A stretch of 63,845 nucleotides of DNA, the filler included, from Craspedostauros australis (Eukaryota), in assembly GCA_030167865.1 (NCBI GenBank). It is 7 parts of 7 records of this genome, joined end to end, with 100 filler letters (N's around TTAATTAATTAA, not from the genome) between each part and the next. Parts side by side here need not be neighbours in the genome. Positions count along the whole stretch, not along the records: positions 1 to 9,186 come from JALAGF010006559.1; positions 9,287 to 39,479 come from JALAGF010006561.1; positions 39,580 to 53,685 come from JALAGF010006565.1; 4 more parts are not named here. One strand, 5' to 3'. Made by a program: the position numbers and the translations under genes. Shown one piece after another: positions 476 through 48,090 of the stretch. Position 1 is the stretch's first letter. Each line of letters opens with the position of its first letter. The notes beneath the pieces were generated by a model. That model was not told the DNA's origin. It searched no databases and saw only the letters and a list, made by a program, of their open reading frames with translations.

Positions 476-1417
476 ATGCCGAATGTTACGAACGAACAAC
501 TCGTTGATGCTGCCGTCGCAGGTGACATGTCGGTGTTGAAGGAGTGGAAGAAGCAGAACGAGACGCAGAATGAAGGAGTTGATGTCAACATGGTTACAGG
601 CGGCTTTGGTTCCACTCCCCTCCATGTGGCATGCTCCAACGGCCAGCTGGAGTGTGTGAAGTACCTCATCAAATCATGTGAGGCGAACATCAACTGCCAA
701 AACATCGATGGTGCCACTCCCCTTCATTTGGCATGCTACAACGGCCACCTGGGGTGTGTGAAGTACCTCATTGAATCATGTGAGGCAAACATCAACTGCA
801 AAACCAACGATGGTTCCACTCCCCTTCATGTGGCATGCCTCAACGGCCACCTGGAGTGTGTCAAGTACCTCACCGAATCAGGTGGAGCGAACATCAACTG
901 CCAAAGCAATCATGGTTCCACTCCCCTTCATTACGCATGCCACGGCGGCCACCTGGAGTGTGTGAAGTACCTCATTAAATCATGTGAGGCGAACATCAAC
1001 TGCCAAAGCAACAATGGTTCCACTCCCCTTCATTGGGCATGCCACAGCGGCCAGCTGGAGTGCGTGAAGTACCTCATCAAATCAGGTGAGGCGAACATCA
1101 ACTGCCAAGACAGCGATGGTGACACTCCCCTTCATTGGGCATGCATTAATGGCCACCTGGAGTGTGTGAAGTACCTCGCCGAATCAGGTGGAGCGAACAT
1201 CACCTGCCAAAACAACAATGGTGACACTCCCCTTCATTGGGCATGCCACAACGGCAAGCTGGAGTATATCGAGTCCCTCATTAGAGGACTTTCGCCTTCA
1301 GTTCACCCACAACTGCAACAACGCTGGCAACAATACGAGCAAGAGAATGAACACAAACACAGTAGCCACAAGAGGACCAACATCAGCATTGGAGAAGACC
1401 GACTCAGATCTTTCTAA
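476..1417 (+). CDS. Ankyrin-repeat protein, copy 1 (N-cap + 7 TPLH repeats + short Q-rich coil)
   Basis: Seven 34-aa repeats GxTPLHxACxxGHLECVKYLIESCEANINC. The ORF ends at TAA where copies 2 and 3 have CAA (RSF-Q-TENR). Confidence 0.92.
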   Translation: MPNVTNEQLVDAAVAGDMSVLKEWKKQNETQNEGVDVNMVTGGFGSTPLHVACSNGQLECVKYLIKSCEANINCQNIDGATPLHLACYNGHLGCVKYLIESCEANINCKTNDGSTPLHVACLNGHLECVKYLTESGGANINCQSNHGSTPLHYACHGGHLECVKYLIKSCEANINCQSNNGSTPLHWACHSGQLECVKYLIKSGEANINCQDSDGDTPLHWACINGHLECVKYLAESGGANITCQNNNGDTPLHWACHNGKLEYIESLIRGLSPSVHPQLQQRWQQYEQENEHKHSSHKRTNISIGEDRLRSF

Positions 1418-1700
1418 ACTGGGAACAGGACAGACACCATCTTCTTGTGTGGACAAGGCGACGAACAGCAACTAACCAAGGCAACTGCTGAAGTCCTCAT
1501 GATCACCGTCCCACCCATTGAGACACTGATCGACAAAGGAATCCAACATCAGCACACGAATGATGACACCGAAGACGGCGCGGCTCCATCCAAACAACCA
1601 TCCCTCTTCCCAACCTTCAACCAAACCATGTCCGATACGTCCTCCAATGCATCTACGCAGGCGAGATATCCTTCAATGACAGCGCTCATGACGACACTGA
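1418..1700 (+). pseudogene. Disrupted N-terminal part of the BTB/POZ domain following ANK copy 1
   Basis: In frame with the ANK ORF after the stop (TGNRTDTIFLCGQGDEQ..ETLIDKG). A 1-nt deletion at DGAAP shifts the frame, and the sequence then jumps to block B. Confidence 0.75.
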
Positions 1701-1799
1701 TGATGATGACGCAAACCAGCGTCTCTTCATGCAACGCAACTCTGTTCGATGATGGTGATGGCAATGGCGACCACTCCAACGGCGCCGCTTCCCTTCACA

Positions 1800-4169
1800 T
1801 TGATACCATCAATGCAAACACCAACGCAAACACAAACAGTCAGACAAGATGATGAGGCATCAACATCCAAGAGGAACTGCGGGAAGGCTCACCAGTTGCT
1901 CCGCACCTTGACCCACTCGTCGTACGACTACGAGTATTACTATGGAACCTTCCATGAGTACGATCTACTCTGGGAGTTGTCACAGCAAAGCGTCCAGCCT
2001 GATACTCTGTTCGAACCTTCGTGCGGTCATGAGGCCATGACGATCGAAGTTGCTGGAAGAGGACGGTGTCAGACTGATAGCGGAGAAGCACACAGAGACC
2101 AAGCAACCGCAACAGGCCAACACGAAATCGAAGGCGAGCGAGCCCACAAGCGTCGCCAAAGAGGCCAAAGCAGCTGCACATTCAGGTGGTTGTGCGAGTG
2201 TCAGCACAGATACACCAAGCAGTGCCAATAGAAGTACAGCAAAAGATGCGAAAGCTTCGGCTGTGAAACGATCACATGTGAAGAGTCTGGAGATGCTCGA
2301 CATGCAAGCTCATGAGATGTCATTCAGCTCCCTTGATCCCAGCAAGTTCAACGACAACAAATCGATGCCGGCGCCAAACACCCCAGGTGGACTCAGCTTC
2401 GCCACAGCCCCAGCACTTGGCGCAACCCGCGAACGGAGCAGCCAAGACAAGACGAAGCTTTCCCAGAGTCGGAGACGCAGGCCAAGGACACACACGAATT
2501 CCAACGGAACGACCAGCAGCGCCAAATCGAGGAGCAAGAGTTTGAAATCCTTGGAATTTTCGAAGGACGGACACAACATGCCAGGCACAACATACACATC
2601 AGACACATCAGGCGCATTGAGCGCAGCCAGCACCCCGGCTCCACCTCGAGTTGCGACAACGGAGACGTCACGCAGCAAGAGCCTGGAGTCACTGTCCAAT
2701 CTGCCAAGTCTCTACGACGACGACAGCGTCGACGTTGCGACAAGTGCTGCCGTAACGAACGGTGGGAGATGCTCTGTGGCCCCTGTCACGCCTGGAGGTC
2801 GGAGCGCGGCATCTACACCAGCCCCCTTCAGCCACACACATGAATAGAGACAACAATCTTCATTGTTGAACAAGCACAGGTCGACGTTGGAAAACGTCCT
2901 CAAAGCCAAACGATCGTCATTACGCGAAGTGTCGTCAACCAATCCTGGCAAATCGAAGCAACGACCATCTCTCGAATGTCGACCATCGCAATTGGCCGAT
3001 CTTGCCTTGACTGAAGCATCTGCAAAGGCGCCATCATCGCCATCATCATCATCGCCGTCGCCACTGTCATCATCATCACGGTCCAAATCCAAACTCGATC
3101 TTCAACAGTTCGAACGCGAACACAAACATGGAGGCGTCTCGGCCACACACCTCAAGCCTCATCCAGTCCTGGAACCTTGAGTCTTGGAATCGAATTGAAA
3201 TCGAGCAAGAAGGAACAGGTGACTCCTTCTCACAACAGATCCGCACGCAGTTCGTTGCGCCCAAGTGAAGACTCAAAGCAACGACGTTCACGCGAATGAA
3301 GCACGGGTGCTCTGCGCGATGCGATCAAGGAAAGGATCTCCAAGGTGCTTGGCAATGGGCCCCGACATCACCACTCCAGCAAAACATCAGGTGTGTCATC
3401 ACCATTGATATTACCATCGATATCACCATCGATATCACCGTCGCCACGACATCGGCGGAGAAGCGCACAGCACACCAGTGGCAAGCCGCACGCGACATCG
3501 CCAAGATCAAAGAGTGTGGAGCATTCGCCATCATTGCGTCATCGTCGCGACGGAGCAATTCACACTTCCTCCTCTGGAAGAAGCCGCCGCTCGCCATCGT
3601 CGCGGAGTCGTCGAAGCCCATCCGATCGCGGCCGCAGAAGAACTGCGCAAGTATCGATGGACTCATCGCCATCATCACGACGCCAACGAACATGTGGCAG
3701 TTCGGATGATGCGAACGCAGCCTCGCGTTNNNNNNNNNNNNNNNNNNNNNNNNNNNNNNNNNNNNNNNNNNNNNNNNNNCTGGTTTGCACCAACGCAAGG
3801 GCTCACCTTCCCGAACGCATGCCCGGGGAAGTTCGCGAAGACCAAATCAACGTGGCCATAGCCAATCGACACCATGTGGCGAAGATCAGCGAAGGAAGTC
3901 CTCCCATGAACGATCACCATCGGCGCGACAACGAAGTAGGTCAAGAGGATATCGAAATTAGAGTATCGAACGGCACATCAATGAGAGAGATGAGAATGGA
4001 CGGCATTGCAAACAACAACATGGCCAACAACAGCATGGCAACAAACGTTCGTCATCACGCGGGGCCCTTCAATCAAATCGTCGTGGACGAAGCAGATCGT
4101 CAACTCGCGATGCTGCTGTCTACCATGAGAAGATGTCTGGCACAAAGCCACTGCAACTCACACCAATGA
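1800..4169 (+). pseudogene. Block B: fragmented Ser/Arg-rich low-complexity gene of unknown function
   Basis: Consecutive same-strand ORFs 2050-2847, 2863-3180 and 3345-4169. Homologous copies at ~41700-44050 and ~52090-53685 (minus) are broken at different positions. Confidence 0.5.
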
Positions 4170-6110
4170 AGGCTGTCAGGAACAAGATCGCGTCTCAGTA
4201 CCGCGATCACTTGACGAATGGTACCAAAACTCTCACCCTGTGATGCATCACGACACGATGGGATGGAATGAGATGGAGGGGCCGCTCCATATTCGTATCA
4301 TACTGCTTGAGATGTGGTAGATCCATGTCCCTGCATGTAATACACCTACGAATAAACTGTACTTCTCTACGTATGTTTGCAATATTACCGCATGAACTAC
4401 ATCTGCTTGTGCAATAGAACACTGTGATGAAGTCACCGGATGTTTCAAGAGATTGAAGGGCTGGATACTGCTCCCATGCTGCCTCTGCCTTGTCTGCAAC
4501 TTGTCTGGTCCGCTCTCTACAATACATACCCACACAGGGATGTTGCCGATGTCATTCATGAGCAGATTGAACGTCCGTGGTTCCATCTACGCCCCGCCAT
4601 CAACATCGTTGTTGGTTCATTGCGCAGACAAAGGACGCAAGGCAGCACCATTTTCACAAGCCGTGCGGTCGTCGCAGTGCGGTCGTCACCATGCCATCGG
4701 ATTCGCACACAGAGCAATCTACTCCAAGTTACACACTGCCAAGCCGATTCAAAGCTACATTGCCAAAATGCCAGCCGATCCAAGTTTGTGGAAGAGACGA
4801 TCTACAAAGAGCACATGGCGAACAAGGCAGAGGGAAATGATGGGAAACCGCGAGGGGCATGGTTGTTGCACGGTTCCATCGACCGTCCCGTATCACGCTA
4901 TTGTCCTCATCTCACCATGAGTTGCACTCCCACCATTGTGCCAAAACTGCAGTCGAGACCCTCGCCAAGTCCCAGGAGGAGTGATCACTCGCCGTTGAAG
5001 CAACAAATGCCAGGGTCACCATCCATTCCAATCTTCGAAGCGATCAGTGCCAGCGTGGCGGAAAGCCAAGAATTGACGAGCCAGCGCAGTCCAAGCATCC
5101 CGAGAGCTTGACGAGCAACAGAAGAAACCAACCAACCAACAACAACCCCATGCAGAGTGCGAGTGCCGTATTGCGGATCATGGTTGACACAGAGATCCAT
5201 TTTGGTACAAGAAGCACACAGTCAGCGATCCATGGCCCATGCGCACAGTATACCCACATGTCCTCCTTTGTGGTGCTCCCAACTTCGTTGATGAGGCGGA
5301 TGTTCCTGTCCATCGCCTCGGTTGAGCATCGATGCTCTGGAAGTCACGAGCCAAGACAGCGGCGCTTCTGCCTATGGATAGAACACGCATGGTATTGTAT
5401 GTTGGTGGTATGTGCGGCAGGAACAGTGGAGGCGGCACAGTATCACTCCGCCTGATGCTTGCTGAACGTGTCAACTCATCCCAATGCGCAATGTGATGTT
5501 GGTTTGATGTTGGGGATTCTTGTTGCCTGTGCGGATGGTGATGGTTGCAATGCGGTGGGATGGCAACCAGCCAAGTCCCAATGAGATGTGTCGCAACCAA
5601 CAGAGGCAACCAACAAAGGCAGTCACATTGGTGGCTTCATCGGTGGCTTCATGGTTGTTCGAGGCATTGGCTCACACCTCAAGTTGGTGCTTGCGATGGC
5701 AGGCGGACGAGGGTCAGCGGTCTTGCAGATGCCACGATGACGCAAGCAAGCGTGGTTCATGGTGCACATGGTGGTGGCGGCGGTGGTGGCGACGATGACA
5801 GCTGTCTGTGTTTCCGAAGACTTTCACGTTGTTTGCTTCGGATTGGTGTTGCGTTGATTGTGGCCAAACGAGAACTCTGTTGTGATGCTTCTTTCTTGTT
5901 GTTGGTCGCACGCATTTTCGTGATGGATGGGAACAGAAAGATCCAAGCCACACGAACCAGACGCGTTTGATCAAGAGGAGACAAACACAGGCAAACAGAA
6001 GGAGGAGACCATGCGAACAAGACAACAACACACACATCACTCAACCCCATACTCAACCGCGTGAACAACAGACATCGAATTGCCACTCATCCTACTATTC
6101 ATCACACAGC

Positions 6111-6176
6111 GTATGGTACTCATACTCATACTAATACAAGCTGTTGCATACACCACCATCGATATCTCTTCCATAG
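6111..6176 (+). other. Candidate 66-nt 5'UTR intron in the ANK leader
   Basis: GTATGG donor, ACTAAT branch-like motif and CATAG acceptor. GTATGG...TAG is also seen in the leaders of copies 1 and 3. Confidence 0.35.
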
Positions 6177-6258
6177 GCAGCTCCGACCACAGACATCCTC
6201 GACAGCCAATCCAACGTCGATCGTCCATCCACCATCGACCATCCACCATCCTCTCAAA

Positions 6259-6807
6259 ATGCCGAGTGTTACCAACCAACAACTCATTGATGCTGCCAAG
6301 GCAGGTGACTTGTCAGTGTTGAAGGAGTGGAAGAAGCAGAACAAGACGCAGAATGAAGGAAATGGTGTCGACAATGTCACAGACTGGAATGGTCGCACTC
6401 CCCTTCATTGGGCATGCTACAACGGCCACCTGGAGTGTGTCAAGTACCTCATTGAATCATGTGAAGCGAACGCCAACTGCCAAAGCAACAATGATTTCAC
6501 TCCCCTTCATTGGGCATGCATGTACAACCGCCTGGAGTGTGTGAAGTACCTCATTGAATCATGTGAGGCGAACATCAACTGCCAAAACAACGATGGTTTC
6601 ACTCCCCTTCATTGGGCATGCTACAACGGCCACCTGGAGTGCGTGGAGTACCTCACCAAATCAGGTGGAGCGAACATCAACTGCCAAAACAACAATGGTT
6701 CCACTCCCCTTCATTGGGCATGCCGCAACGGCAAGCTGGAGTGTATCGAGTCCCTCATTAGAGGACTTTCGCCTTCAGTTCACCCACAACTGCAGCAACG
6801 CTTATAA
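6259..6807 (+). CDS. Ankyrin-repeat protein, copy 2 (N-cap + 4 repeats), prematurely terminated in the coil
   Basis: The MPSVTNQ start is homologous to the other copies (the ORF track extends it upstream to 6061). CAA>TAA stop at 6805-6807. Confidence 0.85.
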   Translation: MPSVTNQQLIDAAKAGDLSVLKEWKKQNKTQNEGNGVDNVTDWNGRTPLHWACYNGHLECVKYLIESCEANANCQSNNDFTPLHWACMYNRLECVKYLIESCEANINCQNNDGFTPLHWACYNGHLECVEYLTKSGGANINCQNNNGSTPLHWACRNGKLECIESLIRGLSPSVHPQLQQRL

Positions 6808-7798
6808 CAAAACGAGCAAGAGAATGAACAACAACAACAACAGTCGAGACACCAGTTGAAGCGGAAGAAGCAAGATAATGAACACAAACACAGCAGCCAC
6901 AAGAGGACCAAAATCAACATTGAAGAAGACAGCTCAGATCCTTCCAAACCGAGAACAGGGCAGGCACCATCTTCTTGTGTGGACAGGGTGATCAAAAACA
7001 ACCAATCAAGACAAACGCCGAAGCCCTTATGATCGCTGCCCCATCCATTGAGACACTGATCGACAAGGGAATCCAACATCACCACACGAATGATGGCACT
7101 GACGACGGTGCAGCCCCCATCCAAACAACCATCCCTCTTCCCAACCTTCAACCAAAACACGTCCGATACATCCTCCAATGCATCTACACAGGCGAGAAAT
7201 CCTTCAATGACAGCGCTCGTGACAACGCCGCCACACACATCGGCGCTCACTCCAACTCTCACCACGATACAAATGCCTCTCACCAGCCAACTCCCATCCT
7301 CACTGGACAGGATGATCTGCACTAGCTGATCCTTGTGGCCAACGAGTTTGGCTTCAGGTGACTCAAGCTTGTTCTTGAAGCGGAGTTGGCCCACAAATAT
7401 CTCACAGAGGATACCATGATAGATGCGGTGATATTCGCCGATCAACACAACTGCTTGGTGTTGTAGGATGCAGCAATGAGAATGGCAGCTGAAAGTGAGA
7501 AGGATATGTTCACTCATCTAGATTTAAGCAAACTGATTCTACAACCCCAACTGATGACGGAGATCCAGGTGTTTTGCGGTGGAAGAACAGAGAGCGCTAG
7601 TATTGATGATGAGTACAACCACCTGTCCATGATGGACCTGTACAAGGTTGTTGATGAGGATGAGGGTACAGCACAAGTGGATTCATACATGGATTGGGCG
7701 ACATTGGTGGGCTTCGTGCGCTCCATGAGAACCAGCTCTATGAGAACCAATTGATCCGAAGTGATTGTGGCGGACGGCACTGCCGAGGAAGAGGAGTG
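6808..7798 (+). pseudogene. Coil + BTB/POZ (BACK-like tail) remnant of ANK copy 2
   Basis: DTIFLCG..LPNLQPKHVRYILQCIYTGE..LILVANEFG..LKLVLEAEL..IFADQHNC fits a BTB fold plus SPOP-like tail. It carries one frameshift and several in-frame stops. Confidence 0.8.
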
Positions 7799-9186
7799 AA
7801 GCAGTTCACTCCAGCAACAGCGCTTGAGGAGCGAACACATCATGGAGTGGAGTAGCGCAGACGGCAAAGTCTGAGCAATTTGATAGCAATTAGATATTCT
7901 CTATATTACTTATCAAGAGAGCCTTCAGACTCGCATGTCGTGTGACCTGTACGAGTAGTCGCGGTGCGGGCACGGTGCAAAGAGATGACGAGCCATCAAT
8001 CCAATGCCGCATCGCACATGCCAAGTCATGCATCAATTCAATGCCAACGCTCGTGTTGAGTGAAAAGACGAAAGTTGGTTTGCACATGCCGAAGAGAGTG
8101 CCGCAAGCGGAACCACCACGACATCAAACAATCGCTCGATCATTGTGAAGTTCAGTTGCGCGGCGTTTTGATGTGACGGGGAGACGAGATGGTTGTGAGT
8201 GTGAATGTCGGTGGGCGAGGAGCATGGAATATGAGCGCCGTGGAGCCAGCGCCGTGGAGCCTCCGCTGGATTCACATTCATATTCGTCATCTTGACCATT
8301 GGTGTCTTGTGATGCGTGAGCGTTTGCTCTGTTGTTCGGGCCAGGCATTGGGGCAGCAGATGAGCCAAGCAATGAAGCAAGAACCATGCGCCTCGCCAAT
8401 TGCGCTTTGGTCATGCTTCATGCGATCGCTCGCCGCCGGCGGAGTACGCGAGGCTTGATGCGGTCCAACCACTTTGCTGGGATGGCGACTGCTCCAGCAT
8501 CCAAAGCGATGCGTCTCATGCGCAGTGCATTGGTGCCATGCGATGCTTCGCTCCCAAGCCGTTGCTTTCCACACCTCAGAACGAATTCGCCGCAGGGTGA
8601 GAGTCTTGCTCCGTGCTCCAGCTTGACGATTTGACGACTTGGGCATCGGCATCATCTGTCGAAAGATACGCGGAACCGAAGTCGACGCCAAGAGATCGCG
8701 CGCGTCGCCCACATGATGCGTGGTCCGACCTCAGCTCTCTCGTCCATCACCTGCACTTTTCCGCGCAACACGTGTGCCTGCCTAGTTCAGTTGGCGGAAT
8801 TGAAGCAGCGAAGACCGCGGTCATTATCTCAGAGGTGTTTGTACCAATAGTCGTACGAGTAGAGGGCAGTGTGCTCGTACGAGTATCATGGTGGTTGGAG
8901 ACCATGGTGCGCGTAGTTGTTGTGTGCTGTGGTGTTGGGTGAAAGGAGCGCACACGATCTTGGTGGTGTTGGTGATGTCTCCCTCTTCCACGATCTTCTG
9001 CTTCTTGGATTCTCGTTCTCATTTGTTGATGTGGAGGTTGTGCGTGTTTGTCTTGTTGTGACATGCATAGCTCAACGTAAAATATGAAATATCAATACGC
9101 ACTAGCTTGATACCACAATCACAATTTACAAAGGTTGAAGTTGTCGGCGCGACGTGGCCACAGACAGCAAGCCAAAATGATGTTAA

Positions 9187-9286
9187 NNNNNNNNNNNNNN
9201 NNNNNNNNNNNNNNNNNNNNNNNNNNNNNNTTAATTAATTAANNNNNNNNNNNNNNNNNNNNNNNNNNNNNNNNNNNNNNNNNNNN
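9187..9286. other. Artificial contig linker (44N-TTAATTAATTAA-44N); same linker at 39480-39579, 53686-53785, 56136-56235, 58675-58774, 61269-61368
   Basis: Identical 100-bp structure six times; the core gives stops in all six frames. Confidence 0.98.
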
Positions 9287-9553
9287 GCTGTTGCTTGTGG
9301 CGCCCCTCCGGATTCGAACCGCAGAGCAGATACAATCATGGGCGACCCAGGGCAGCATCTCAAGCGTTCTCCTCCCATGACGGGTGCCCATAATAGTCCA
9401 AAGAAGATGAAGTCTCAAGAGATTGTCGAGGACGGCAAGCCTGCAGCAATCGACTTCGCAGTCAACACGACTCTTCCCAGCAGTGACGGCAACAGTGACA
9501 GTGAGACTGAGGATTTTGATGATGAACTCGCAGACTTCTTTTCTCATGCCTAA
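9287..9553 (+). CDS. 3' end of an unknown ORF convergent with the transposase (possible second Harbinger gene)
   Basis: Open from the contig edge to TAA at 9553, with an acidic C-terminus (DSETEDFDDELADFF). It ends 66 nt from the transposase stop. No Myb/SANT motif is visible. Confidence 0.4.
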   Translation, partial: AVACGAPPDSNRRADTIMGDPGQHLKRSPPMTGAHNSPKKMKSQEIVEDGKPAAIDFAVNTTLPSSDGNSDSETEDFDDELADFFSHA

Positions 9554-9619
9554 ACAACCAATTAGTAACATGAAGTATTTGGAACAGTTATCAACTACAG
9601 TTCTCTACCTGCATTACCA

Positions 9620-11784: not shown

Positions 11785-11990
11785 GCTCCTGTGCCGCGCT
11801 TCCTCCTCCTCGGTTGCTTGCGATGGCTCCTGTGTCGCTGCCTGTGGTTCCTCCTCGCTGGCTTTCTCCTCCTTGGATGTTTGCGATGGTTGCTATGCTG
11901 CTGGTGGTGGCTCTTCCTCCTTGGCTGCTCGCGATGGTTGCTGTGCCACTGCCTGTGCTTCCTCCATGCTGGTTTTCTTCTCCTTGATGT
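10600..11990 (-). repeat. Degenerate minisatellite of ~48 and ~60 bp units upstream of and in frame with the transposase
   Basis: Recurrent GCACAGCAACCATCGCAAGCAGCCGAGGAGGAGGAAGC core. It reads ATIASSRGGGS.. in the transposase frame and AAQQPSRAAEEEE in another frame. Confidence 0.9.
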
Positions 11991-12326
11991 TTCCAACGTC
12001 TTGATTGCTTGATGGATGATCGGTGAAGGGTGATGAAGTGTGACGAACGGCTTGTAATTTATCATGGAGCAGAACACACAGGAAGGCCATCACGTTCGCC
12101 ACAAGTGTTGTGTGGCCGACAAATTTGAATCATGTTTGTAACGGCGCGAAACGATTCTTTGACATAACTGTGATAATTGGGAGACGATGCGTGATGTGTG
12201 TGGGTGTGTGTGTGTGATGTCATTGTTGTGAATATCCCTGACTGAACGGAGGCCGCGAACATGGGAGATTGTTGCTGCACCGTCTGTCATGGGATCGTAT
12301 ACCAACAATAACTACTCTCGATGTGT

Positions 12327-12591
12327 GTTGAGTACTTTCAACGCTTGTTGAGTACTTTCAACGCTTGTTGAGTACTTTCAACGTTTGTTGAGTACTTTCA
12401 ACGTTTGTTGAGTACTTTCAACGTTTGTTGAGTACTTTCAACGTTTGTTNNNNNNNNNNNNNNNNNNNNNAGTACTTTCAACGTTTGTTCAGTACTTTCA
12501 ACGTTTGTTCAGTACTTTCAACGTTTGTTGAGTACTTTCAACGTTTGTTCAGTACTTTCAACGTTTGTTGAGCACTTTCAACGTTTGTTGA
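12327..12591. repeat. Tandem array of ~13 x 20 bp, GTTGAGTACTTTCAACGTTT
   Basis: Directly visible, with no spacers. Each unit has an internal inverted pair GTTGA/TCAAC. Includes a 21-N gap. Confidence 0.97.
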
Positions 12592-16188: not shown

Positions 16189-16249
16189 GTAGCCAGAGTC
16201 CCTGCTTCTGCTCCGATTGTTTCCAGAGATTGCGGCAGATCAACTTCGC

Positions 16250-19495: not shown

Positions 19496-20622
19496 TCACT
19501 CCTCTTCTTCAGCAGCACCGTCCGTCTCAATCGTTTTGGATGATTTGGTAGTCAAAGAGCAGACGAAGTCCACCAATGTCGCCCGATCCAGGTATGAATC
19601 CACTTGTGTTGTGCCCTCATCCTCATCCACAACCTTGTGCAACTCCACCATGGACATACGACTGTACTCATCATCAATACCATCACTCTCCATTCTCCCA
19701 CTGCAAAACACCTGGATCTCCGTCATCAGTTGGGGTTGTAGAATCAGTTTGCTTAAATCTAGATGAGTGAACATATCTTTCTCACTTTCAGCTGCCATTC
19801 TCATTGCTGCATCCTTCAACACCACACAGTTGTGTTGATCAGCGAATATCAACGCACCTATCATGGTGCCCTTGGTGAGATGCTTGCGGACCAACTCTGC
19901 TTCAAGAACAAGCTTGAGTCGCCAGAAGCCGATCTCGTTGGCCACCAGGATCAGCTGGTGCAGACTATGCTGTCCATTGAGGGTGGGAGTTGGCTGGTGA
20001 GAGGCATCTGTATCGTGGTGAGCGCTGGTGTGAGCGCTGGTGTGAGCGCCGANNNNNNNNNNNNNNNNNNNNNNNNNNNNNNNNNNNNNNNNNNNNNNNN
20101 NNNNNNNNNNNNNNNNNNNNNNNNNNNNNNNNNNNNNNNNNNNNNNNNNNNNNNNNNNNNNNNNNNNNNNNNNNNNNNNNNNNNNNNNNNNNNNNNNNNN
20201 NNNNNNNNNNNNNNNNGTGTGGTGATGTTGGATTCCTTTGTCGATCAGTGTCTCAATGGATGGGACAGCGATCATAAGGGCTTCGGCGTTTGTCTTGATT
20301 GGTTGTTGTCGGTCGTCCTGTCCACATACGAAGATGGTGTCTGGCCTGTTCTCGGTTTGGAAGGATCTGNNNNNNNNNNNNNNNNNNNNNNNNNNNNNNN
20401 NNNNNNNNNNNNNNNNNNNAGGGATGGTTGTTTGGATGGGGGCTGCACCGTCGTCAGTGCCATCATTCGTGTGGTGATGTTGGATTCCTTTGTCGATCAG
20501 TGTCTCAATGGATGGGACAGCGATCATAAGGGCTTCGGCGTTTGTCTTGATTGGTTGTTGTCGGTCGTCCTGTCCACATACGAAGATGGTGTCTGGCCTG
20601 TTCTCGGTTTGGAAGGATCTGG
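19496..20622 (-). CDS. BTB/POZ + BACK-like domain of ANK copy 3, in the -1 frame relative to the ANK ORF; contains gaps
   Basis: RSFQTENRPDTIFVCG..LHQLILVANEIGFWRLKLVLEAELVRKHL..ALIFADQHNCVVLKDAAM. No stops in the sequenced part; spans N gaps and a gap-flank duplication. Confidence 0.7.
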
Positions 20623-22215
20623 GCTGTCTTCAATGTTGATGTTGGTCCTCTTGTGACTGCTGTGTTTGTGTTCATTCTCTTGCTTCTTTCGCTTCAACTG
20701 CTGTCCCAACTGTTCTTGTGGCTGTTCATTTGCTTGCTCGTTTTGTTGTAAGCGTTGCTGCAGTTGTTGCAGTTGTGGGTCAGCTGAAGGCGAAAGTCCT
20801 CTGATGAGGGACTCCACACACTCCAGCATGCTGTTCCGGCATGCATAATGAAGGGGAGTGGAACCATGGTTGGCGTTGCAGTTGGCATTCGCCCCACATG
20901 ATTCAATGAGGTACTCCACACACTCCAGGTGGTCGAACATGCATGCCTGATGAAGGGGAGTGCGGCCATCGTTGTTTTTGCAGTTGATGTTCGCCCCGCA
21001 TGATTCGATGAGGTACTTGATACACTCCAGCTCGCCGCTGTCGCATGCGAGATGAAGGGGAGTGCGGCCATCGTTGTCTTTGCTGTTGATGTTTGCTTCA
21101 CATGATTCGATGAGGTACTTCACACACTCCAGGTGGCCGTTGATGCATGCCTGATGAAGGGGAGTGTAACCATTGTTGTCTTTGCAGTTGATGTCCGCCC
21201 CACATGATTCGATGAGGTACTCCACACACTCCAGGTGGCCGCTGTAGCATGCCCGATGAAGGGGAGGGAAACCATGGTTGTCTTCGCAGTTGATGTTCGC
21301 CCCACATGATTCGATGAGGTACTTCACACACTCCAGCTCGCCGTTGATGCATGCCCGATGAAGGGGAGTGCGGCCATCCCTGTCTTTGCTGTTGATGTTT
21401 GCTTCACATGATTCGATGAGGTGCTTCACACACTCCAGCTGGCCATATATGCATGCCATATGAAGGGGAGTGGAACCATGGTTGACGTTGCAGTTGGCAT
21501 TCGCCCCACATGATTCGATGAGGTACTTCACACACCCCAGGTGGCCTTCGCAGCATGCCCGATGAAGGGGAGGGAAACCATGGTTGTCTTCGCAGTTGAT
21601 GTTCGCCCCACATGATTCGATGAGGTACTTCACACACTCCAGGTGGCCGTTCATGCATGCCTGATGAAGGGGAGTGTAACCATCGTTGCTTTTGCAGTTG
21701 GCATTCGCTCCACCTGATTCGATGAGGTACTCCACACACTCCAGGTGGCCGCTGTAGCATGCCCGATGAAGGGGAGTGCGGCCATCGCTGTCTTTGCTGT
21801 TGATGTTTGCTTCACATGATTCGATGAGGTACTTCACACACTCCAGCTCGCCGCTGTGGCATGCGAGATGAAGGGGAGTGTAACCATCGTTGTCTTTGCA
21901 GTTGGCATTCGCCCCACATGATTCGATGAGGTACTTCACACACCCCAGGCGGCCGTTCATGCATGCCCAATGAAGGGGAGGGAAACCATGGTTGTCTTCG
22001 CAGTTGATGTTCGCCCCACATGATTCGATGAGGTACTTCACACACTCCAGGTGGCCGTAGATGCATGCCCAATGAAGGGGAGTGAAACCAATCCTGTCTG
22101 TAACCTTGTTGACATCAACTTGTGTCTTCTTGTTCTGCTTCTTCCATTCCTTCAACACCCACAAGTCACCTTCCCCAGCAGCATCAAGGAGTTGTTCGTT
22201 CGTAACACTCGGCAT
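20524..22215 (-). CDS. Ankyrin-repeat protein, copy 3 (N-cap + 13 repeats + Q-rich coil)
   Basis: Thirteen (T/P)PLH repeats. MPSVTNE start at 22215. Reads out of frame into BTB DNA after NIEDS. Confidence 0.92.
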   Translation of the reverse strand: MPSVTNEQLLDAAGEGDLWVLKEWKKQNKKTQVDVNKVTDRIGFTPLHWACIYGHLECVKYLIESCGANINCEDNHGFPPLHWACMNGRLGCVKYLIESCGANANCKDNDGYTPLHLACHSGELECVKYLIESCEANINSKDSDGRTPLHRACYSGHLECVEYLIESGGANANCKSNDGYTPLHQACMNGHLECVKYLIESCGANINCEDNHGFPPLHRACCEGHLGCVKYLIESCGANANCNVNHGSTPLHMACIYGQLECVKHLIESCEANINSKDRDGRTPLHRACINGELECVKYLIESCGANINCEDNHGFPPLHRACYSGHLECVEYLIESCGADINCKDNNGYTPLHQACINGHLECVKYLIESCEANINSKDNDGRTPLHLACDSGELECIKYLIESCGANINCKNNDGRTPLHQACMFDHLECVEYLIESCGANANCNANHGSTPLHYACRNSMLECVESLIRGLSPSADPQLQQLQQRLQQNEQANEQPQEQLGQQLKRKKQENEHKHSSHKRTNINIEDSPDPSKPRTGQTPSSYVDRTTDNNQSRQTPKPL

Positions 22216-27700: not shown

Positions 27701-27780
27701 TCGGTGCAGCATCATCTCGTGAGCAGCCGCCGTTCCAACCAACAAGCATCGGCGTCCACGCAAATTCCATTTTGCTTGCC

Positions 27781-38502: not shown

Positions 38503-41500
38503 TCCTTGTATTCGTGCTTGTGGCTGGAGTATGGAGTACGATGCACAGATCTATAACACGATCACTTGTGTGATGCACGGGGATGAGATTGGGCCATAGG
38601 CAACGACTCGATTCCGCGAAGCCACCACTCAACCAGCACCCGCCAAACCAACCAACCAATTCAATTGTAGGCTCGTGCGGGTGTGGTATGAGCAAGGTAA
38701 GTGGATCGTCGGGAAGCATGTTGTGCCCCGCTCCAAGCAGAGCACCCCATCAGCAACTTTGTTCTGTTGGTGTGGGGGCAAATGTTCCGCTGGTTTGTGC
38801 AGAATGTCTCAAAGCGAAGCGTTGCGGCGGAAGTACGATCCAAGACAACCAACGCGAATCTTGGACTACATCGATTACATCAACTTAGTTGTCGCCGCGA
38901 TCCCCATCTGCAAAGACAGATAGCGAGGAAAGAGCGAGAGACTTCGATAGTCCATTATCACGATCTAACTGTGATCAGCATGACTTTGTGCTCTCCATCA
39001 ATCGTTCTACACCTGTGATGTCATAGCGTACTCTATCACCGATACGTCCCAGCACATCGGAATGCATAACAGGTTTGCCACTACCGCACAGTTGCTCTCT
39101 TGTTAATACGAGCCCCTCGAGCGAGTCGACCAACTGTTTGAAATGAAGAGTCTAGTCGTTTTTCTGGGATTTTTAAACTAATAACAAATACATAATCCTC
39201 GTAGTATATTTACATATGGTGGACCCTTTCAGATTCTACTTGGTTTCATTTTAAGTTTTATGGAGTGATCTATGTGTGCATTGCAGTCGCGTTGATCCAA
39301 CAGCAGCAAATTCGTTAGTTTCTGCCGAAGGTTCGANAATGTTCTCATGCATTTATCGTGAGGTGATAAGTCACGGACCTGCTTCCGAAGGTGCCGGTCG
39401 TTTGGTACGCGTTAATTACACGTTAGCATGTGGCACCTGATTCCACATTCTGCTCGTCACAAAACACATGACACAAAACNNNNNNNNNNNNNNNNNNNNN
39501 NNNNNNNNNNNNNNNNNNNNNNNTTAATTAATTAANNNNNNNNNNNNNNNNNNNNNNNNNNNNNNNNNNNNNNNNNNNNGGACGTTGGACGTTGGACGAT
39601 TGGCGTTGGATTGGCTGTCGAGGATGTCTGTGGTCGGAGCTGCCTATGGAAGAGATATCGATGGTGGTGTCTGCAACAGCTTGTATTAGTATGAGTATGA
39701 GTACCATACGCTGTGTGATGAATATGAGTGGCAATTCGATGTTTGTTGTTGATGCGCTGGAGTATGGGGTTGAGTGGTGTGTGTGTTGTTGTCTTGTTCG
39801 CATGGTCTCCTCCTTCTCTCTTTGTGTTTGCCTGTGTTTGTCTCCTTCTCTTGATCAAACGCGTCTGNTTCGCGCGGATTGGATCTTTCTGTTCCCATCC
39901 ATCACGAAAATGCGTGCGACCAACAACAAGAAAGAAGCACCACAACAGAGTTCTCGTTTGGCCACAATCAACACAACACCAATCCGAAGCAAACAACGTG
40001 AAAGTCTTCGGAAACACAGACAGCTGTCATCGTCGCCACCGCCGCCGCCATCACCATGTGCACCATGGCCCACGCTTGCTTGCGTCATCGTGGCATCTGC
40101 AAGACCGCTGACCCTTGTCCGCCTGCTATCGCAAGCACCAACTTGAGGTGTGAGCCAATGCCTCGAACAACCATGAAGCCACCAATGTGACTGCCTTGGT
40201 TGGTTTCAACCNNNNNNNNNNNNNNNNNNNNNNNNNNNNNNNNNNNNNNNNNNNNNNNNNNGAGGTGTGAGCCAATGCCTCGAACAACCATGAAGCCACC
40301 AATGTGACTGCCTTGGTTGGTTTCAACCCATCTCATTTGGATTTGACTGGTTGCCATCCCACCGCATTGCGACCATAACCATCCGCGCAGGCAACAAGAG
40401 TCCCCAACATCCAACCAACACCACATTGCGTATTGGGATGAGTTGGCATGTTCGGCAATCAACAGGCGGAGCGATACCGTGCCGCCTCCACTGTTCCTGC
40501 TGCATGGACCACCAACATACAATACCATGCGCGTTCTATCCACAGGCAGAAGCACCGCCGTCTTGGCTCGTGACTTCCAGAGCATCGATGCCCAACCGAG
40601 GCGATCGACAGGAACATCCGTCTCATCAACGAAGTTGGGAGCACCACGAAGGAGGACATGTGGAGATACGGTGCGCGCATGGGCCATGGATCGCTGACCG
40701 TGTGCTTCTTGCGCCATATGGAACTCTGTGTCAACCATGATCCGCAATACTGCACTCGCACTCTGCATGGGGTTGCTTGTTGGTTCGTTGGTTCGTTGGT
40801 TTCTTCTTTTGCTCGTCAAGCTCTCTGGATGCTTGGACTGCGCTAGCTCGTCGGTTCTTGTCTTTCCGTCACGCTGGCACTGTTCGCTTCGAAGATTGGA
40901 ATGAATGGTGACCCTGGCAATTGTTGCTGTAACCGCGAGTGATTGCTCCTCCTCGGACTTGATAAGGGTCTCGACTGCAGTGTTGGCATAATGGTGGGAG
41001 TGCAACTCATGGAGAGATGAGGACAATAGCGTGATACGGGACGGTCGATGGAACCGTGCAGCAACCATGCTCCTCGCGGCTTCTCACCATCTCCCTCTGC
41101 CTTGTTCGCCATGTGTTCTTCGTAGATCGCCTCTTCCAGCAACTTGGATCGACTGGCATCGGCACTGTTGCTTTGCATCTGCTTGGTAGTGTAACTTGGA
41201 GTGGAGATTGCTCTGTGTGCGAATCCGGTGGCATCGTGACGACCGCACGGCTTGTGATACTGCTGCTGCCATGCGTCCTTTGCCTGTGCAACGAACCAAC
41301 AACGATGCTGATGGCGGAGTGTGGATGGAACCACAGATGTCCAATCCGTTCATGAATGACATCGGCAACATCCCTGTGTGGGTATGTACCGCAGAGAGCG
41401 GACCAGACTAGTCGTTGACAAGGCGGAGGCAGCATGGGAGCAGTATCCAGCCCTTCAATCTCTTGAAACATCCGGTGCCTTCATCACAGCGTTCTATTGC

Positions 41501-44500: not shown

Positions 44501-45634
44501 ATGACGCTGATACAGATGATGAATGGCAAGCGGTGATGAACAGCGATATCAAACGTGTCGCATCACTCAGCGACATCCGAAAGGAAGATATCACACAAAC
44601 TGCTCCGGAGTAGAGGAGAGCTTGGGACATGGGCAATGGCAGCACCAACAACAGAGCCAACAGCCATGGCAAGAAATGTCATGGCCCATGGTGCGGTCTG
44701 GATTCAAGTCATCAGCAGCCGCGCGCACGCACAGAAACGTACGATGCGGTGTAGGAAACGGAGATTCAACACATGTTGAACGGGTGCATCTGTGAGATTG
44801 GACGCAGCGACTTTTCCCGAGACCAACAGAGCCATCAGTTTGGAGATGTTCCTCAGTCCCCACTACACGCACCACAACCAGCCACGCCTGTTCATACCGA
44901 TGCTCGAAACGATACGTTGCCACCACAAACCGCAAACGATGAGACAGAGGCACTGTCTCCTTGGATCCACCATTATTGAAATCCTGTGCAATGACGTTGG
45001 CAACTTCTCCCATTGCTCGTCATCTTTGTCGGCCATACCTATCGAAACCATGCAGCAGCTGTTGGCATGCGCTTGTGCCCTGCGCGACATCATGCTCGAA
45101 CTGCAGCACCACCACCACCACCAACAACAAGCTAACTGTCGCAATACGCTCCACTTCATCAAGTTGGATTCGATTCCTACAAGCCATGCATGACACCCGC
45201 GAGGTCCACCATAGCTTCCCACACAACTCCTTCCACACCCGCGAAACCAACGAACGTGGAAACCATATGATCGGCAATGACGACCACAACGATGACAGCG
45301 GTGGCTGGACCATCTTCTTCATGTCGCATTGGCCACTGATGCTGCACACCAACGTGCCTTACACCAACCAGGATCATCTGCAATTCATTCACAGAAGATT
45401 ATGCGTATCTCGCGGCCCAACCAGACCGCGCTGCGAACGATAGGGTGGACGGTGAAGGAATGCCGGACGCACCATTCAATGAATCGATCATAAATTGCTC
45501 CAGCTCCTTTCATATAGTTACTATCCTAATGACTATTCTGACGACTATTTTTATCCATCAACTCAATTCTGTCATGCGTTCACTTGTGGAAGATTTCTGG
45601 TACGGTATGGCATGGTATGAAATGGTCTGACACT

Positions 45635-46470
45635 TCACGCCTCTTCTGCAGCAGCACCGTCCGTCTCAACCACTATGGATGATTTGGTAGTCATAGAGCG
45701 GACGAAGTCCACCAATGTCACCCAATCCATGTATGAATCCACTTGTGCTGTACCCTTGTCCTCATCTATGACCTTGTACAGCTCCACCATGGACATGTGG
45801 CTGTACTCATCATCAATACCATCACTCTCCGCTCCCCCATCGCGGAGGATATGAATGCCTCCCATCAGTTGAGGTTGTAGAATTAGTTTGCTTAAATCTA
45901 GATGAGTGAACGTATCCTTCTCACTTTCAGCTGCCATTCTCATCGCCATATCCTTCAACACCATGCAGTTGTGCTGATGAGCGAATATCAACACATCTAT
46001 CATGCTGTCTTCTGTGAGATGCTTGCGGGCCAACTCCACTTCAAGAACAAGCTTGAGTCGTCAGAAGCCAAACTCGTTGGCCACAAGGATCAGCTGTTGC
46101 AGATCATCCTGTCCAGTGAGGATGGGAGTTGGCTGGTGAGAGGCATCTGTATCGTGGTGAGCGTTGGCGTGAGCACCGATGTGAGTGGCGGCGTTGTCAC
46201 GAGCGCTGTCATTGAAGGATATCTCGCCTGTGTAGATGCATTGGAGGACGTATCGGACGTGCCTTGGTTGGAGGTGGGGAAGAGGGATGGTTGTTTGGAT
46301 TGAGCCGCGCCGTCCTTGGTGCCATCATGTGCGCATTGATGTTGGATTCCAGAGTTGATCAGTGTCTGAATGGATGGGACAGCGATCATGAGGACTCCAG
46401 AGTTTGCCTTGATTGGTTGTTGTTGGTCGCCCTGTCCACACAAGAAGATGGTGTCTGTCCTGTTCTCAGT
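45635..46470 (-). pseudogene. BTB/POZ remnant of ANK copy 4
   Basis: Same TAA and same DGAA frameshift as copy 1. The downstream ELARKHLTEDSMIDVLIFAHQHNCMVLKD portion is open. Confidence 0.8.
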
Positions 46471-48090
46471 TTAGGAGGATTTGAGTCGGTCTTCTCCAAT
46501 GCTGACATTGGTCCTCTTGTTGCTGCTGTGTTTGTGTTCATTCTCTTGGCTCTTTCGCTTCAACTGCTGTCTCAACTGTTCTTGTGGTTGTTCATTTGCT
46601 TGTTCGTTTTGTTGTAAGTGTTGCTGCAGTTGTTGCAGTTGTGAGTGAACTGAAGGTGAAAGTCCTCTAATGAGGGACTCCATACACTCCAGGTGGCCGT
46701 TGTAGCATGCCCAACGAAGGGGAGTTTCACCTTTGTTGTTTTGACAGTTGATGTTCGCCCCACCTGATTCGATGAGGTACTTCACACACTCCAGGTGGCC
46801 ACGCATGCATGCCCGATGAAGGGGAGTGGAACCAGAGTTGTTTTTGCAGTTGATGTTCGCTTCACCTGATTCAATGAGGTACACAACACACTCCAGGTGG
46901 CCACGCGTGCATGCCCAATGAAGGGGAGTGGAACCATAGTTGTTTTGGCAGTTGATGTCCGCCTCACATGATTCGATGAGGTACTTGACACACTCCAGGC
47001 AGCCGTTTATGCATGCATGATGAAGGGGAATGCAGCCATAGTTGTTTTTGCAATGGATGTTTGCCTCACATGATTCGATGAGGTACTTGACACACTCCAG
47101 GTGGCTGTTGATGCATGCCAGATGAAGGGGAATGTCACCATCGTTGTCTTTGCAGTTGATGTCCGCCTCACATGATTCAATGAGGTACTTGGCACACTTC
47201 AGGTGGCCGTTGTAGCATGCCAGATGAAGGGGAGTGCGACCATAGTTGGTTTTGCAGTTGATATTCGCCTCACATGATTCGATGAGGTACTTCACACACT
47301 CCAGGTGGCCGTTGCAGCATGCCCAATGAAGGGGAGTGTAACCATCGTTGTTTTTGCAGTTGATGTTCGCCTCACATGATTCGATGAGGTACTTGACACA
47401 CTCCAGGTGACCGTTGTAGCATGCCAGATGAAGGGGAGTGTCACCATCGTCATCTTTGCAGTTGATGTCCGCCTCACATGATTCAATGAGGTACTTGGCA
47501 CACTTCAGGTGGCCGTTGTAGCATGCCAGATGAAGGGGAGTGCGACCATAGTTGGTTTTGCAGTTGATGTTCGCCTCACATGATTCGATGAGGTACTTCA
47601 CACACTCCAGGTGGCCGTTGTAGCATGCATCATGAAGGGGAGTGTAACCATCGTTGTCTTTGCAGCTGATGTCCGCCTCACATGATTCGATGAGGTACTT
47701 GACACACTCCAGGTGGCCGTTGTAGCATGCATCATGAAGGGGAGTGCGACCAGAGTTGTCTTTGCAGTTGATGTCCGCCTCACATGATTCGATGAGGTAC
47801 TTCACACACTCCAGGTGGCCGTTGTAGCATGCCAGATGAAGGGGAGTGCGACCAGAGTTGTTTTTGCAGTTGATGTCCGCCTCACATGATTCGATGAGGT
47901 ACTTCACACACTCCAGGTGACCGTTGTAGCATGCCCAATGAAGGGGAGTGGAACCACGCCAGTCTGTAGTAACCTCGTTGACATCAACTCCTTCATTCTG
48001 CGTCTTATTCTGCTTCTTCCACTCCTTCAACACTGACAAGTCACCTGCCTCGACAGCATCAATGAGTTGTTGGTTGGTAACACTCGGCAT
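46471..48090 (-). CDS. Ankyrin-repeat protein, copy 4 (N-cap + 13 repeats + Q-rich coil)
   Basis: Thirteen repeats in an intact 539-aa ORF ending EDRLKSS*. Confidence 0.93.
   Translation of the reverse strand: MPSVTNQQLIDAVEAGDLSVLKEWKKQNKTQNEGVDVNEVTTDWRGSTPLHWACYNGHLECVKYLIESCEADINCKNNSGRTPLHLACYNGHLECVKYLIESCEADINCKDNSGRTPLHDACYNGHLECVKYLIESCEADISCKDNDGYTPLHDACYNGHLECVKYLIESCEANINCKTNYGRTPLHLACYNGHLKCAKYLIESCEADINCKDDDGDTPLHLACYNGHLECVKYLIESCEANINCKNNDGYTPLHWACCNGHLECVKYLIESCEANINCKTNYGRTPLHLACYNGHLKCAKYLIESCEADINCKDNDGDIPLHLACINSHLECVKYLIESCEANIHCKNNYGCIPLHHACINGCLECVKYLIESCEADINCQNNYGSTPLHWACTRGHLECVVYLIESGEANINCKNNSGSTPLHRACMRGHLECVKYLIESGGANINCQNNKGETPLRWACYNGHLECMESLIRGLSPSVHSQLQQLQQHLQQNEQANEQPQEQLRQQLKRKSQENEHKHSSNKRTNVSIGEDRLKSS

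Follow-up and report, generated by a model that had tools for sequence, protein, structure and literature searches.

The four ankyrin-repeat genes described here (A1 to A4) lie in a 63,845-nucleotide stretch of the Craspedostauros australis genome (assembly GCA_030167865.1; seven parts of seven records joined end to end, hereafter the window), a gapped draft sequence with 41 runs of N totalling 1899 N. We assign a probability of about 0.72 to the reading that these genes belong to a lineage-specific diatom family in which a variable number of ankyrin repeats is joined to a BTB-BACK module (ANK(n)-BTB-BACK), that the face of the ankyrin array is diversifying, and that all of the copies in the window have become uncoupled from BTB-BACK.

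Results

Four ankyrin arrays share a conserved 102-bp unit

With Tandem Repeats Finder (TRF), tandem repetition of period 102 was detected in four places, at 82-86% matches and with indels at 0-1%. When repeats were counted on the translated open reading frames (ORFs) by anchoring at PL[HR], A1, A2, A3 and A4 were found to contain 7, 4, 13 and 13 repeats respectively. The spacing was exactly 34 amino acids in 33/33 cases (a 102-bp unit), and none of the 37 repeats contained a stop codon or an indel. All four predicted proteins matched the Pfam ankyrin families (PF00023, PF12796 and related; E 1e-44 to 1e-252), and the best matches of the arrays among PDB sequences were ankyrin-1, NOMPC and designed ankyrin repeat proteins (DARPins). 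Compared with ankyrin-1, the window unit has one additional residue after helix 2, giving a period of 34 rather than 33. Every ORF starts with MP[NS]VTN, the beginning of an N-cap common to the four copies (MP[NS]VTN.QL..A...GD..VLKEWKKQN), and each gene closes its array with a divergent C-cap repeat (..LE.[IVM]ESLIRGLSPS), followed by a tail rich in Gln, Glu and Lys. TRF and translation thus confirm a preliminary description of this DNA, which had reported paralogs with these numbers of 102-bp repeats and with shared caps.

Repeat positions were numbered starting two residues ahead of G. Among the 33 non-cap repeats ten positions were invariant (P6, L7, H8, A10, C11, L16, C18, L22, S25 and A28), and the pieces of the framework are an outer helix LECVKYLIES, a core TPLH.AC and a loop ANINC. 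Mean identity between repeats was 83.8% for nucleotides and 71.7% for amino acids (70.6-78.3% for amino acids within genes), and 32/33 repeats were distinct. Amino acid identity was 84.8% over the 26 framework positions versus 29% over the 8 variable positions. The preliminary description had called the framework almost invariant at the DNA level; the conservation is real, and the wording mildly overstated given 83.8% nucleotide identity. Its list of residues after PLH (W, L, R, Q, V, D, Y, M and H) and of residue pairs after AC agreed exactly with ours.

Variable residues map to the hairpin and the first helix

High entropy was observed at repeat positions 1, 2, 4, 9, 12, 13, 33 and 34, which are positions 2, 3, 5, 10, 13, 14, 33 and 1 in the usual ankyrin numbering. 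In a single-sequence AlphaFold2 (AF2) model of A1 (mean predicted local distance difference test score (pLDDT) 68.2, predicted template modelling score 0.66), helix 1 comprises repeat positions 6-12 and helix 2 positions 16-26, such that positions 9 and 12 are on helix 1, position 13 is at its end, and positions 1, 2, 4, 33 and 34 are in the hairpin loop. Helix 1 is presumably the inner helix, as in the ankyrin fold generally. DARPin libraries are randomised at positions 2, 3, 5, 13, 14 and 33. The ANK-N5C library is described as randomising positions 2, 3, 5, 10, 13 and 33, in the beta-turn and helix 1, where they form a continuous binding surface (PMC4308713). Secondary structure and the ANK-N5C paper together suggest that the variable residues of the window arrays cluster on one face. 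The model helices and the ANK-N5C positions also support the earlier proposal that variation falls on the positions randomised in designed ankyrin libraries, here those of the hairpin and the inner helix.

Replacement changes exceed silent changes at the variable sites

Variability alone proves little, because the same positions vary in ankyrin repeats generally. We compared the proportions of nonsynonymous (pN) and synonymous (pS) differences between repeats, obtaining counting estimates on short, recombining 102-bp units. Over all 528 repeat pairs the eight variable sites had a pN/pS of 2.16 and the framework one of 0.54, and in 16 disjoint nearest-neighbour pairs, chosen to limit saturation and non-independence, the values were 2.88 and 0.38. 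Because the eight sites had been picked after the data were seen, the count was repeated on the six DARPin library positions, set before counting, with the synonymous rate taken over all codons. Here pN was 0.245 versus a pS of 0.107 (ratio 2.30; bootstrap over pairs 1.61-3.33; one-sided Fisher p 8e-6), and positions outside the six gave a ratio of 0.62. The residue after PLH (position 9) alone gave 5.2 (p 8e-10). The diversification that had been suspected at the variable sites is therefore matched by a pN/pS above 1, both at the six pre-set positions and at position 9.

Compared pairwise, variable codons differed by 0.53, 0.46 and 0.19 at their first, second and third bases, and framework codons by 0.10, 0.07 and 0.11. 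The third base was kept both in the codons of repeat position 2 (GAT/CAT/AAT/TAT/TCT/TTT/ATT/CGT) and in those of position 4 (CGC/TCC/TTC/TAC/GAC/GCC/TGC). Since variable codons are interleaved with invariant ones, homogenisation by gene conversion alone cannot make this pattern. The replacement pattern indicates that what the array binds has probably been under diversifying selection.

Plain pseudogene decay would produce a related picture, with dead copies accumulating changes under relaxed constraint at the generally variable surface positions of ankyrin repeats and no diversifying selection. Such decay would accommodate the disabling changes found downstream of the array in 4/4 copies and the overall repeat pN/pS of about 1, and the positions in question are described as high-entropy in ankyrin repeats generally, hence their choice by library designers (PMC4308713). 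However, relaxed constraint cannot lift pN over pS, as seen at the pre-set sites (2.3, with a bootstrap floor of 1.6, against 0.38-0.62 for the framework), and the third positions of the variable codons are conserved. Furthermore, approximately 3.8 kb of repeats are free of stops and indels where neutral drift predicts several: single-base changes giving stops amount to 4.7-5.3% in the ankyrin ORFs, and with neutral divergence of 0.05-0.10 substitutions per site A1 should have gained 2.2-4.4 stops, A3 4.0-8.0 and A4 4.3-8.6, compared with none observed. We therefore judge this explanation very unlikely. The ankyrin ORFs would be kept open either by selection on ankyrin-only products or by conversion from intact paralogs.

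The BTB-BACK module is the C-terminal half of the same gene

BTB-like sequence is located directly downstream of all four arrays on the same strand, falling under Pfam thresholds and interrupted in every copy. No BTB family was found at E <=1e-4 in 199 of the 205 stop-to-stop window ORFs of at least 110 amino acids, the other six being the ankyrin ORFs of A1 to A4 plus two frames that overlap. When 15 flanking ORFs were rescanned at a loose Pfam threshold, BTB was matched at 6924-7322 (E 0.0057; 17.3 bits versus a cut-off of 20.5) and BACK_BPM_SPOP at 19499-20629(-) (E 0.0021) and 45638-46060(-) (E 0.0023), the latter two at 18.5-18.6 bits versus a cut-off of 27.4.

A protein database search with the frame downstream of A3 identified two proteins, P0127 and P0128, among 216 candidates. 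P0127 (UniRef name 'BTB domain-containing protein, Craspedostauros australis') is transcript-derived, intact and 366 amino acids long, and is 84% identical to A3 over the BTB-BACK module. It contains a window-type N-cap, one ankyrin repeat, a tail identical to that of A3, and BTB-BACK in the same frame. Its junction reads ...NISIGEDRLKSFQTENRTDTIFLCGQGD..., with which the window DNA is colinear, and at the codon where P0127 has Q both A1 and A4 have TAA. Because P0127 is colinear with the window DNA in one frame, array and BTB belong to one single-exon gene, of which the BTB forms the C-terminal half. The comparison shows array and BTB-BACK to be parts of one predicted ancestral single-exon ORF, with the layout N-cap, ANK(n), Q-rich linker, SPOP-like BTB-BACK. 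The preliminary description had linked the arrays to BTB domains; BTB does belong to the family, as part of this ORF and not as a separate neighbouring gene.

An AF2 model of P0127 was built from an 11-sequence alignment (mean pLDDT 68.9, with values >85 in the BTB-BACK helices and <50 in the linker, residues 82-123, and in an insert, residues 219-245). The best Foldseek match was the BTB of human SPOP (4j8z; E 4.8e-8, template modelling score by target 0.81), followed by full-length SPOP, with which the alignment extended over 231-251 columns, beyond the BTB core. KEAP1, KBTBD2 and KLHL11 were also matched, and NPR1 (7mk3) appeared at rank 49. The model, made for the relative P0127 and not for a window copy, shows that the predicted C-terminal module is SPOP-like BTB-BACK by fold. 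Pfam gave no MATH domain in either window proteins or ANK-BTB relatives, where ankyrin repeats stand instead, and no NACHT or NB-ARC domain in the four proteins, the 199 other ORFs or the relatives.

As assembled, all four window copies are severed from BTB-BACK

The remnants of BTB-BACK behind each array are listed in Table 1. For A1, tblastn with P0127 aligned query residues 45-188 in frame 2, residues 189-224 in frame 1 and nothing further, placing the frame change near P0127 residue 188/189; the A1 tail additionally carries an in-frame 63-nt deletion. A2 has a TAA in the tail where the other copies read CAA, and in total four stops and a frameshift. At the A3 junction there is a 4-nt deletion, and the BTB-BACK frame beyond it is crossed by N gaps at 20370-20419 and 20053-20216. 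A 153-bp block is repeated at 100% across the first gap and looks like an assembly artefact; because the deletion lies only 1-9 bases from this duplicated block, the disruption of A3 is the least certain of the four. The TGA of A4 at 46061-46063 stands where A3 and P0127 have W.

Comparing BTB-BACK between copies gave synonymous divergence (dS) of 0.2-0.3 and ratios of nonsynonymous to synonymous divergence (dN/dS) of 0.35-0.51, but 0.92 for the A1-A4 pair, a value that would be consistent with BTB function having been lost before these two copies diverged. The coupling to ubiquitination that had been suggested for these genes does not hold for the window copies, since as assembled none of the four can achieve it, the BTB being cut off by a stop, a frameshift or a deletion. 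The window copies are either predicted ankyrin-only proteins or young pseudogenes of a birth-and-death family.

Ankyrin-only copies might themselves be functional, acting as free binders or decoys against the full-length adaptors, or supplying intact paralogs, as silent donors, with repeat cassettes by gene conversion. Consistent with this, they retain open ORFs, in contrast to BTB remnants that in A1 and A4 are near-neutral (the ratio of 0.92) and stop-bearing, and uncoupling took two independent forms, a TAA in A1 and A4 and deletions in A2 and A3. Moreover, the nearest neighbour of 5/9 non-cap repeats of A1 and A2 lies in another gene, compatible with inter-gene exchange. However, recent conversion from intact genes can also keep frames open, and A2 has been cut to 182 amino acids. 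We regard a function for these copies as possible, with the odds somewhat against it.

Two further accounts of the interrupted frames were rejected. For an intron at the array-BTB junction, P0127 is colinear with the DNA and no conserved GT...AG pair flanks the stop; at the A3 junction only some 40 bases would be available. For a variant genetic code, TAA, TAG and TGA are all found among the disrupting codons.

Intact relatives are found in C. australis and in transcript collections

An exhaustive HMMER search with P0128 among 1.84 billion representatives (50% identity) returned 117 matches at E <=1e-3, 19 of them at <=1e-10. The best relatives are 434-607 amino acids long with BTB-BACK at the C-terminus. 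A Pfam scan of 18 relatives detected ankyrin repeats together with BTB in nine, namely P0127 and eight others; all of the eight scored above the BTB cut-off, at 24-34 bits, and P0127 just under it, at 20.0 bits versus 20.5. BACK_BPM_SPOP, over window copies and relatives, gave E 0.0015-0.0023, below its 27.4-bit cut-off. Five of the more distant relatives scanned were MATH-BTB(-BACK) proteins. All named ANK-BTB relatives come from C. australis or are MMETSP transcripts; C. australis and Stauroneis constricta are the sources of the MATH-BTB cousins. The repeats of other family members keep the 34-residue period (with one 33-residue spacing, in P0129) and are only 32-61% alike; the window subfamily is therefore probably a recently expanded or homogenised branch.

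P0128 itself, a JGI record from outside the window, has its predicted start Met inside the BTB (MITVPSIQ...), and its gene may also have been severed from an upstream array. Sequencing run X1, whose kind is guessed, contains 0.58 of the sampled words. On positions 43000-46760, 702 of its contigs align at >=90% identity and 174 at >=99%, with pieces of 118-168 bases among those listed; these numbers would be compatible with many paralogs.

Other searches returned no further members. A search with the whole A4 protein matched 7742 of 8000 scored candidates, all generic ankyrin proteins at <=51% identity and none with BTB, and an extended search with the A3 BTB-BACK frame had none of 369 candidates at E <=0.01. 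With P0128, phmmer against PDB sequences gave no match at E <=1, and a protein-guided scan of metagenome contigs gave 64 pattern matches without a relative. A 20-base framework pattern, matching 18 window repeats, had no match in the metagenome contigs.

The genes lie in duplicated units of a gapped assembly

Self-BLAST placed the gene inside a unit of approximately 5.7-8.3 kb, of which both head-to-tail and inverted copies occur, at 79-93% identity (Table 1). The nearest neighbour of a repeat was in the same array for 10/12 non-cap repeats of A3 and 10/12 of A4, and repeats 5 and 8 of A4 differ at 1/102 bases, which points to probable recent duplication of units within arrays.

It could be argued that short-read assembly of a multicopy family has mixed paralogs and thereby created the repeat numbers, the near-identical repeats and some of the disruptions. 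The 41 N runs, the three block pairs at 99-100% identity across gaps, the hundreds of variant X1 contigs for the shared part and the position of the A3 frameshift beside a repeated block would all fit such an origin. The arrays, however, are without any N, 32/33 repeats are distinct, and all repeats are in frame and of exact length. In addition, A1 and A4 have the TAA and the 1-nt deletion in common within flanks that are 10-20% different, a combination that chimeric assembly would not yield, and the selection signal is independent of repeat order or number. An assembly origin thus appears quite unlikely. Close to gaps the situation is different: the blocks repeated across them (20217-20369/20469-20621; 55012-55191/55471-55650; 62020-62192/62495-62667) and the recurrence of N runs as 44 N, 12 bases, 44 N point to artefacts of scaffolding or masking, and structure near the gaps is untrustworthy.

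The spacer of the unit, at 2041-4166(+) with copies at 44093-41957(-) and 53685-52359(-), contains long Ser/Arg/Pro-rich ORFs that match no Pfam family. In the A1 unit these are of 268 and 289 amino acids and of low complexity; their coding status is doubtful because their lengths differ among copies. Carriage of the unit by a transposon was considered and found unsupported: the units abut head to tail, and the spacer ORFs match no Pfam family. The sole transposase match in the window, a DDE_Tnp_4 (Harbinger/PIF-type) fragment at 9623-10252(-) (E 3e-15), lies beside N runs and outside the ankyrin units.

Between the A3 unit and the remaining window, an ORF of 412 amino acids at 23538-24773(-) has a match to PF25192, a family of diatom pyrenoid shell proteins (E 3.5e-88), and is the clearest taxonomic marker in the window. 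This gene and the naming of the relatives as C. australis bear out the earlier impression of a diatom-like genome. The duplicated blocks also enclose a 601-residue ORF at 36748-38550(-), which matches Glyco_trans_1_2 in its C-terminal part (E 1e-13) and resembles an ordinary single-copy gene. At 10333-12009, nested tandem repeats extend over approximately 1.6 kb, with periods of 45-219 bases and 72-88% matches, and leave ORFs of 526-562 amino acids open on both strands, with no Pfam family. The sequence at 12326-12591 consists of 13 copies of a 20-base unit, TGTTGAGTACTTTCAACGTT, which is almost identical to its reverse complement. A 27-base unit with the palindrome TTGCGTCCGGACGCAA forms two short arrays at 49181-49253 and 49770-49843, immediately upstream of the A4 unit, where they flank an N run.

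Table 1. Coordinates of the ankyrin genes, their BTB-BACK remnants and the duplicated units in the window
Feature	Position	Strand	Description
A1 ORF	476..1417	+	313 aa; N-cap, 7 ankyrin repeats, shortened Q-rich tail; ends at TAA 1415-1417
A2 ORF	6259..6807	+	182 aa; N-cap, 4 ankyrin repeats; TAA in Q-rich tail
A3 ORF	20524..22215	-	563 aa; N-cap, 13 repeats, Q-rich tail, then 35 out-of-frame residues
A4 ORF	46471..48090	-	539 aa; N-cap, 13 repeats, Q-rich tail; ends at TAA 46471-46473
A1 array, TRF	607-1265		6.5 copies, 85% matches
A2 array, TRF	6388-6759		3.6 copies
A3 array, TRF	20803-22090		12.6 copies
A4 array, TRF	46670-47956		12.6 copies
A1 array, repeat anchoring	602-1315	+	
A2 array, repeat anchoring	6385-6792	+	
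A3 array, repeat anchoring	20770-22095	-	
A4 array, repeat anchoring	46636-47961	-	
A1 BTB remnant	1418..1695	+	N-terminal BTB half in frame after TAA; then 1-nt deletion; C-terminal BTB-BACK deleted
A2 BTB-BACK remnant	6924..7800	+	Out of frame with array (1-nt junction deletion); three in-frame stops
A3 BTB-BACK frame	19499..20629	-	Open throughout; one frame off array; no start codon
A4 BTB-BACK remnant	45635..46470	-	In frame after TAA; then 1-nt deletion common to A1; then TGA 46061-46063
A1 unit	139..5864	+	Gene and about 4 kb of spacer; abuts A2 unit head to tail
Related unit or part	5864-7801	+	Self-BLAST
Related unit or part	22469-17551	-	Self-BLAST
Related unit or part	48499-40262	-	Self-BLAST
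Spacer-only copy	53685-50432	-	Self-BLAST
Spacer-only copy	14587-13087	-	Self-BLAST
Further unit start	39580..40205	-	Upstream region only, 91-92% identical to A2/A4 upstream; ended by N runs

Discussion

We propose that the window holds a cluster of tandem and inverse duplicates from a gene family specific to a diatom lineage. An intact member would be encoded by one exon, with an N-cap, 1 to 13 repeats of 34 residues and a C-cap, joined through a Q/E/K-rich linker to a SPOP-like BTB-BACK. By analogy with SPOP and BPM, the BTB-BACK would dimerise and dock on Cullin-3, and the ankyrin array would replace MATH as the substrate-binding part, selecting targets for ubiquitination. The arrays change by whole 102-bp units, pointing to unequal crossing-over, and replacements build up at the hairpin and inner-helix positions of the putative concave binding face. 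As assembled, the four window copies have lost their connection to BTB-BACK, and their ankyrin ORFs are still open, through either selection or gene conversion.

Ankyrin repeats are the recognition part of cullin-ligase adaptors in the ankyrin-SOCS-box (ASB) proteins and in the ankyrin/F-box-like proteins of poxviruses. Plant NPR1 likewise carries ankyrin recognition on a cullin-ligase adaptor, although its domain order (BTB then ankyrin) differs from that of the window family, and animal ABTB/BTBD11 combine ankyrin repeats with an E3-adaptor module. To our knowledge, none of NPR1, ABTB/BTBD11, the ASB proteins or the poxvirus ankyrin proteins has been described with highly conserved yet hypervariable repeats.

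MATH-BTB adaptor families are reportedly expanded and positively selected in their substrate-binding domain, a finding said to go back to Thomas in 2006. The window family resembles the MATH-BTB-BACK proteins SPOP and BPM in the fold of its BTB-BACK, and its nearest non-ankyrin sequence relatives are MATH-BTB-BACK proteins of C. australis and a related diatom; in both, a conserved ligase-docking domain would be paired with a fast-evolving binding domain and expanded by tandem duplication. Unlike SPOP and BPM, it has an ankyrin array in place of MATH, N-terminal and behind a Q-rich linker, and the modelled BTB of P0127 has a low-confidence insert of approximately 27 residues. Accounts of ubiquitin-ligase adaptors in other lineages describe expanded nematode and plant F-box families with positively selected substrate-binding domains (PMC8120010), and expanded, positively selected families of MATH-BTB and F-box adaptors (PMC6883508, PMC4091423).

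The closest likeness in the behaviour of the repeats is to fungal NOD-like receptors (NLRs; NOD stands for nucleotide-binding oligomerization domain). The ANK, TPR and WD repeats of these proteins are described by Dyrka et al. 2014 as having high internal conservation and variable repeat number, with positive selection in the ankyrin repeats on some five positions per repeat in the concave inner helix and hairpin, and with a proposal of concerted evolution through shuffling of repeats (PMC4986451). Similarly, the window repeats are alike within and between paralogs, vary in number, and show selection on a few positions of the putative concave face. In contrast to the fungal receptors, the window genes have no NACHT or NB-ARC and are partnered with a SPOP-like BTB-BACK, the host is a diatom, variation in repeat number is known here from paralogs alone (1, 4, 7, 13 and 13), and four copies are disrupted. 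By definition the window family is neither a fungal-type NLR (no NOD) nor SPOP proper (no MATH), and the window copies lack an expressible BTB. DARPins and ANK-N5C share with the arrays a fixed consensus framework and diversity limited to hairpin and helix-1 positions, as set out for that library (PMC4308713), but the window arrays are natural, have 34 and not 33 residues per repeat, are rich in Cys (AC, LEC, SC, INC) and reach 13 repeats. Among stramenopiles, fast-evolving LRR and TPR families of the brown alga Ectocarpus have been put forward as candidate receptors, diversifying against pathogens (Zambounis et al. 2012, PMC3341825). As described there, those families differ from the window genes in repeat type, in having NB-ARC or ROCO partners and in exon shuffling, whereas the window gene has a single exon and gains or loses units in frame.

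Several points weigh against the proposed ANK(n)-BTB-BACK family with a diversifying face. None of the four copies makes an ANK-BTB protein as assembled, and the coupling to ubiquitination rests on relatives; the window's own Pfam matches to BTB and BACK are below the curated cut-offs. Overall repeat pN/pS is about 1 (1.08; 0.94), and the case leans on heterogeneity among sites; the ratios are counting estimates on recombining 102-bp units, and sites 9 and 34, among the eight variable ones, were chosen with the data in view. Both structure models (A1 and P0127) are only moderately confident. At 71.7% amino acid identity, the repeats fall short of the 85% over >=100 amino acids used in the fungal work, as that criterion is given there (PMC4986451). 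Finally, the repeat counts and the A3 frameshift may be products of assembly, given the 41 N runs, the 100%-identical blocks flanking gaps and the near-identity of repeats 5 and 8 of A4.

What the arrays would recognise can be framed in two ways. In an innate-immunity-like repertoire of raphid diatoms, ANK-BTB adaptors with diversifying ankyrin faces would catch viral or bacterial proteins and tag them for degradation, and arrays without BTB would serve as decoys or as silent cassette donors, passing new combinations of repeats to intact genes by conversion; we hold this specific form to be rather improbable. Alternatively, the proteins could be fast-evolving Cullin-3 adaptors in the diatom's own biology, for example in sexual reproduction or mating compatibility, with co-evolution of receptor and ligand. 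For the benthic diatom Seminavis robusta, BTB/POZ families are mentioned as sexual-stage-biased and among diversifying genes (PMC7335047), and there is no pathogen pointer within the window. However, the combination of conserved repeats and positive selection has so far been described mainly for non-self receptors, at least in the account of the fungal proteins (PMC4986451), and we consider an endogenous role unlikely.

Titles and abstract beginnings of the literature on diatom ankyrin and BTB proteins and on the C. australis genome describe no such family. C. australis appears in that literature as an organism of laboratory studies of gliding motility. Although the value of the finding is tempered by the disruption of the four window copies and by a function that is inferred, the family would extend the combination of conserved framework, hypervariable sites and gain or loss of units, mainly known from fungal NLRs, to a stramenopile ubiquitin-ligase adaptor. 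If the immunity-like reading were true, it would be a counterpart of fungal NLR repeat shuffling in another lineage and with another output domain. Little is so far understood of the molecules by which diatoms recognise viruses, bacteria or mating partners, and a fast-evolving, library-like ankyrin surface joined to a putative Cullin-3-type adaptor would provide a concrete candidate receptor family for them.

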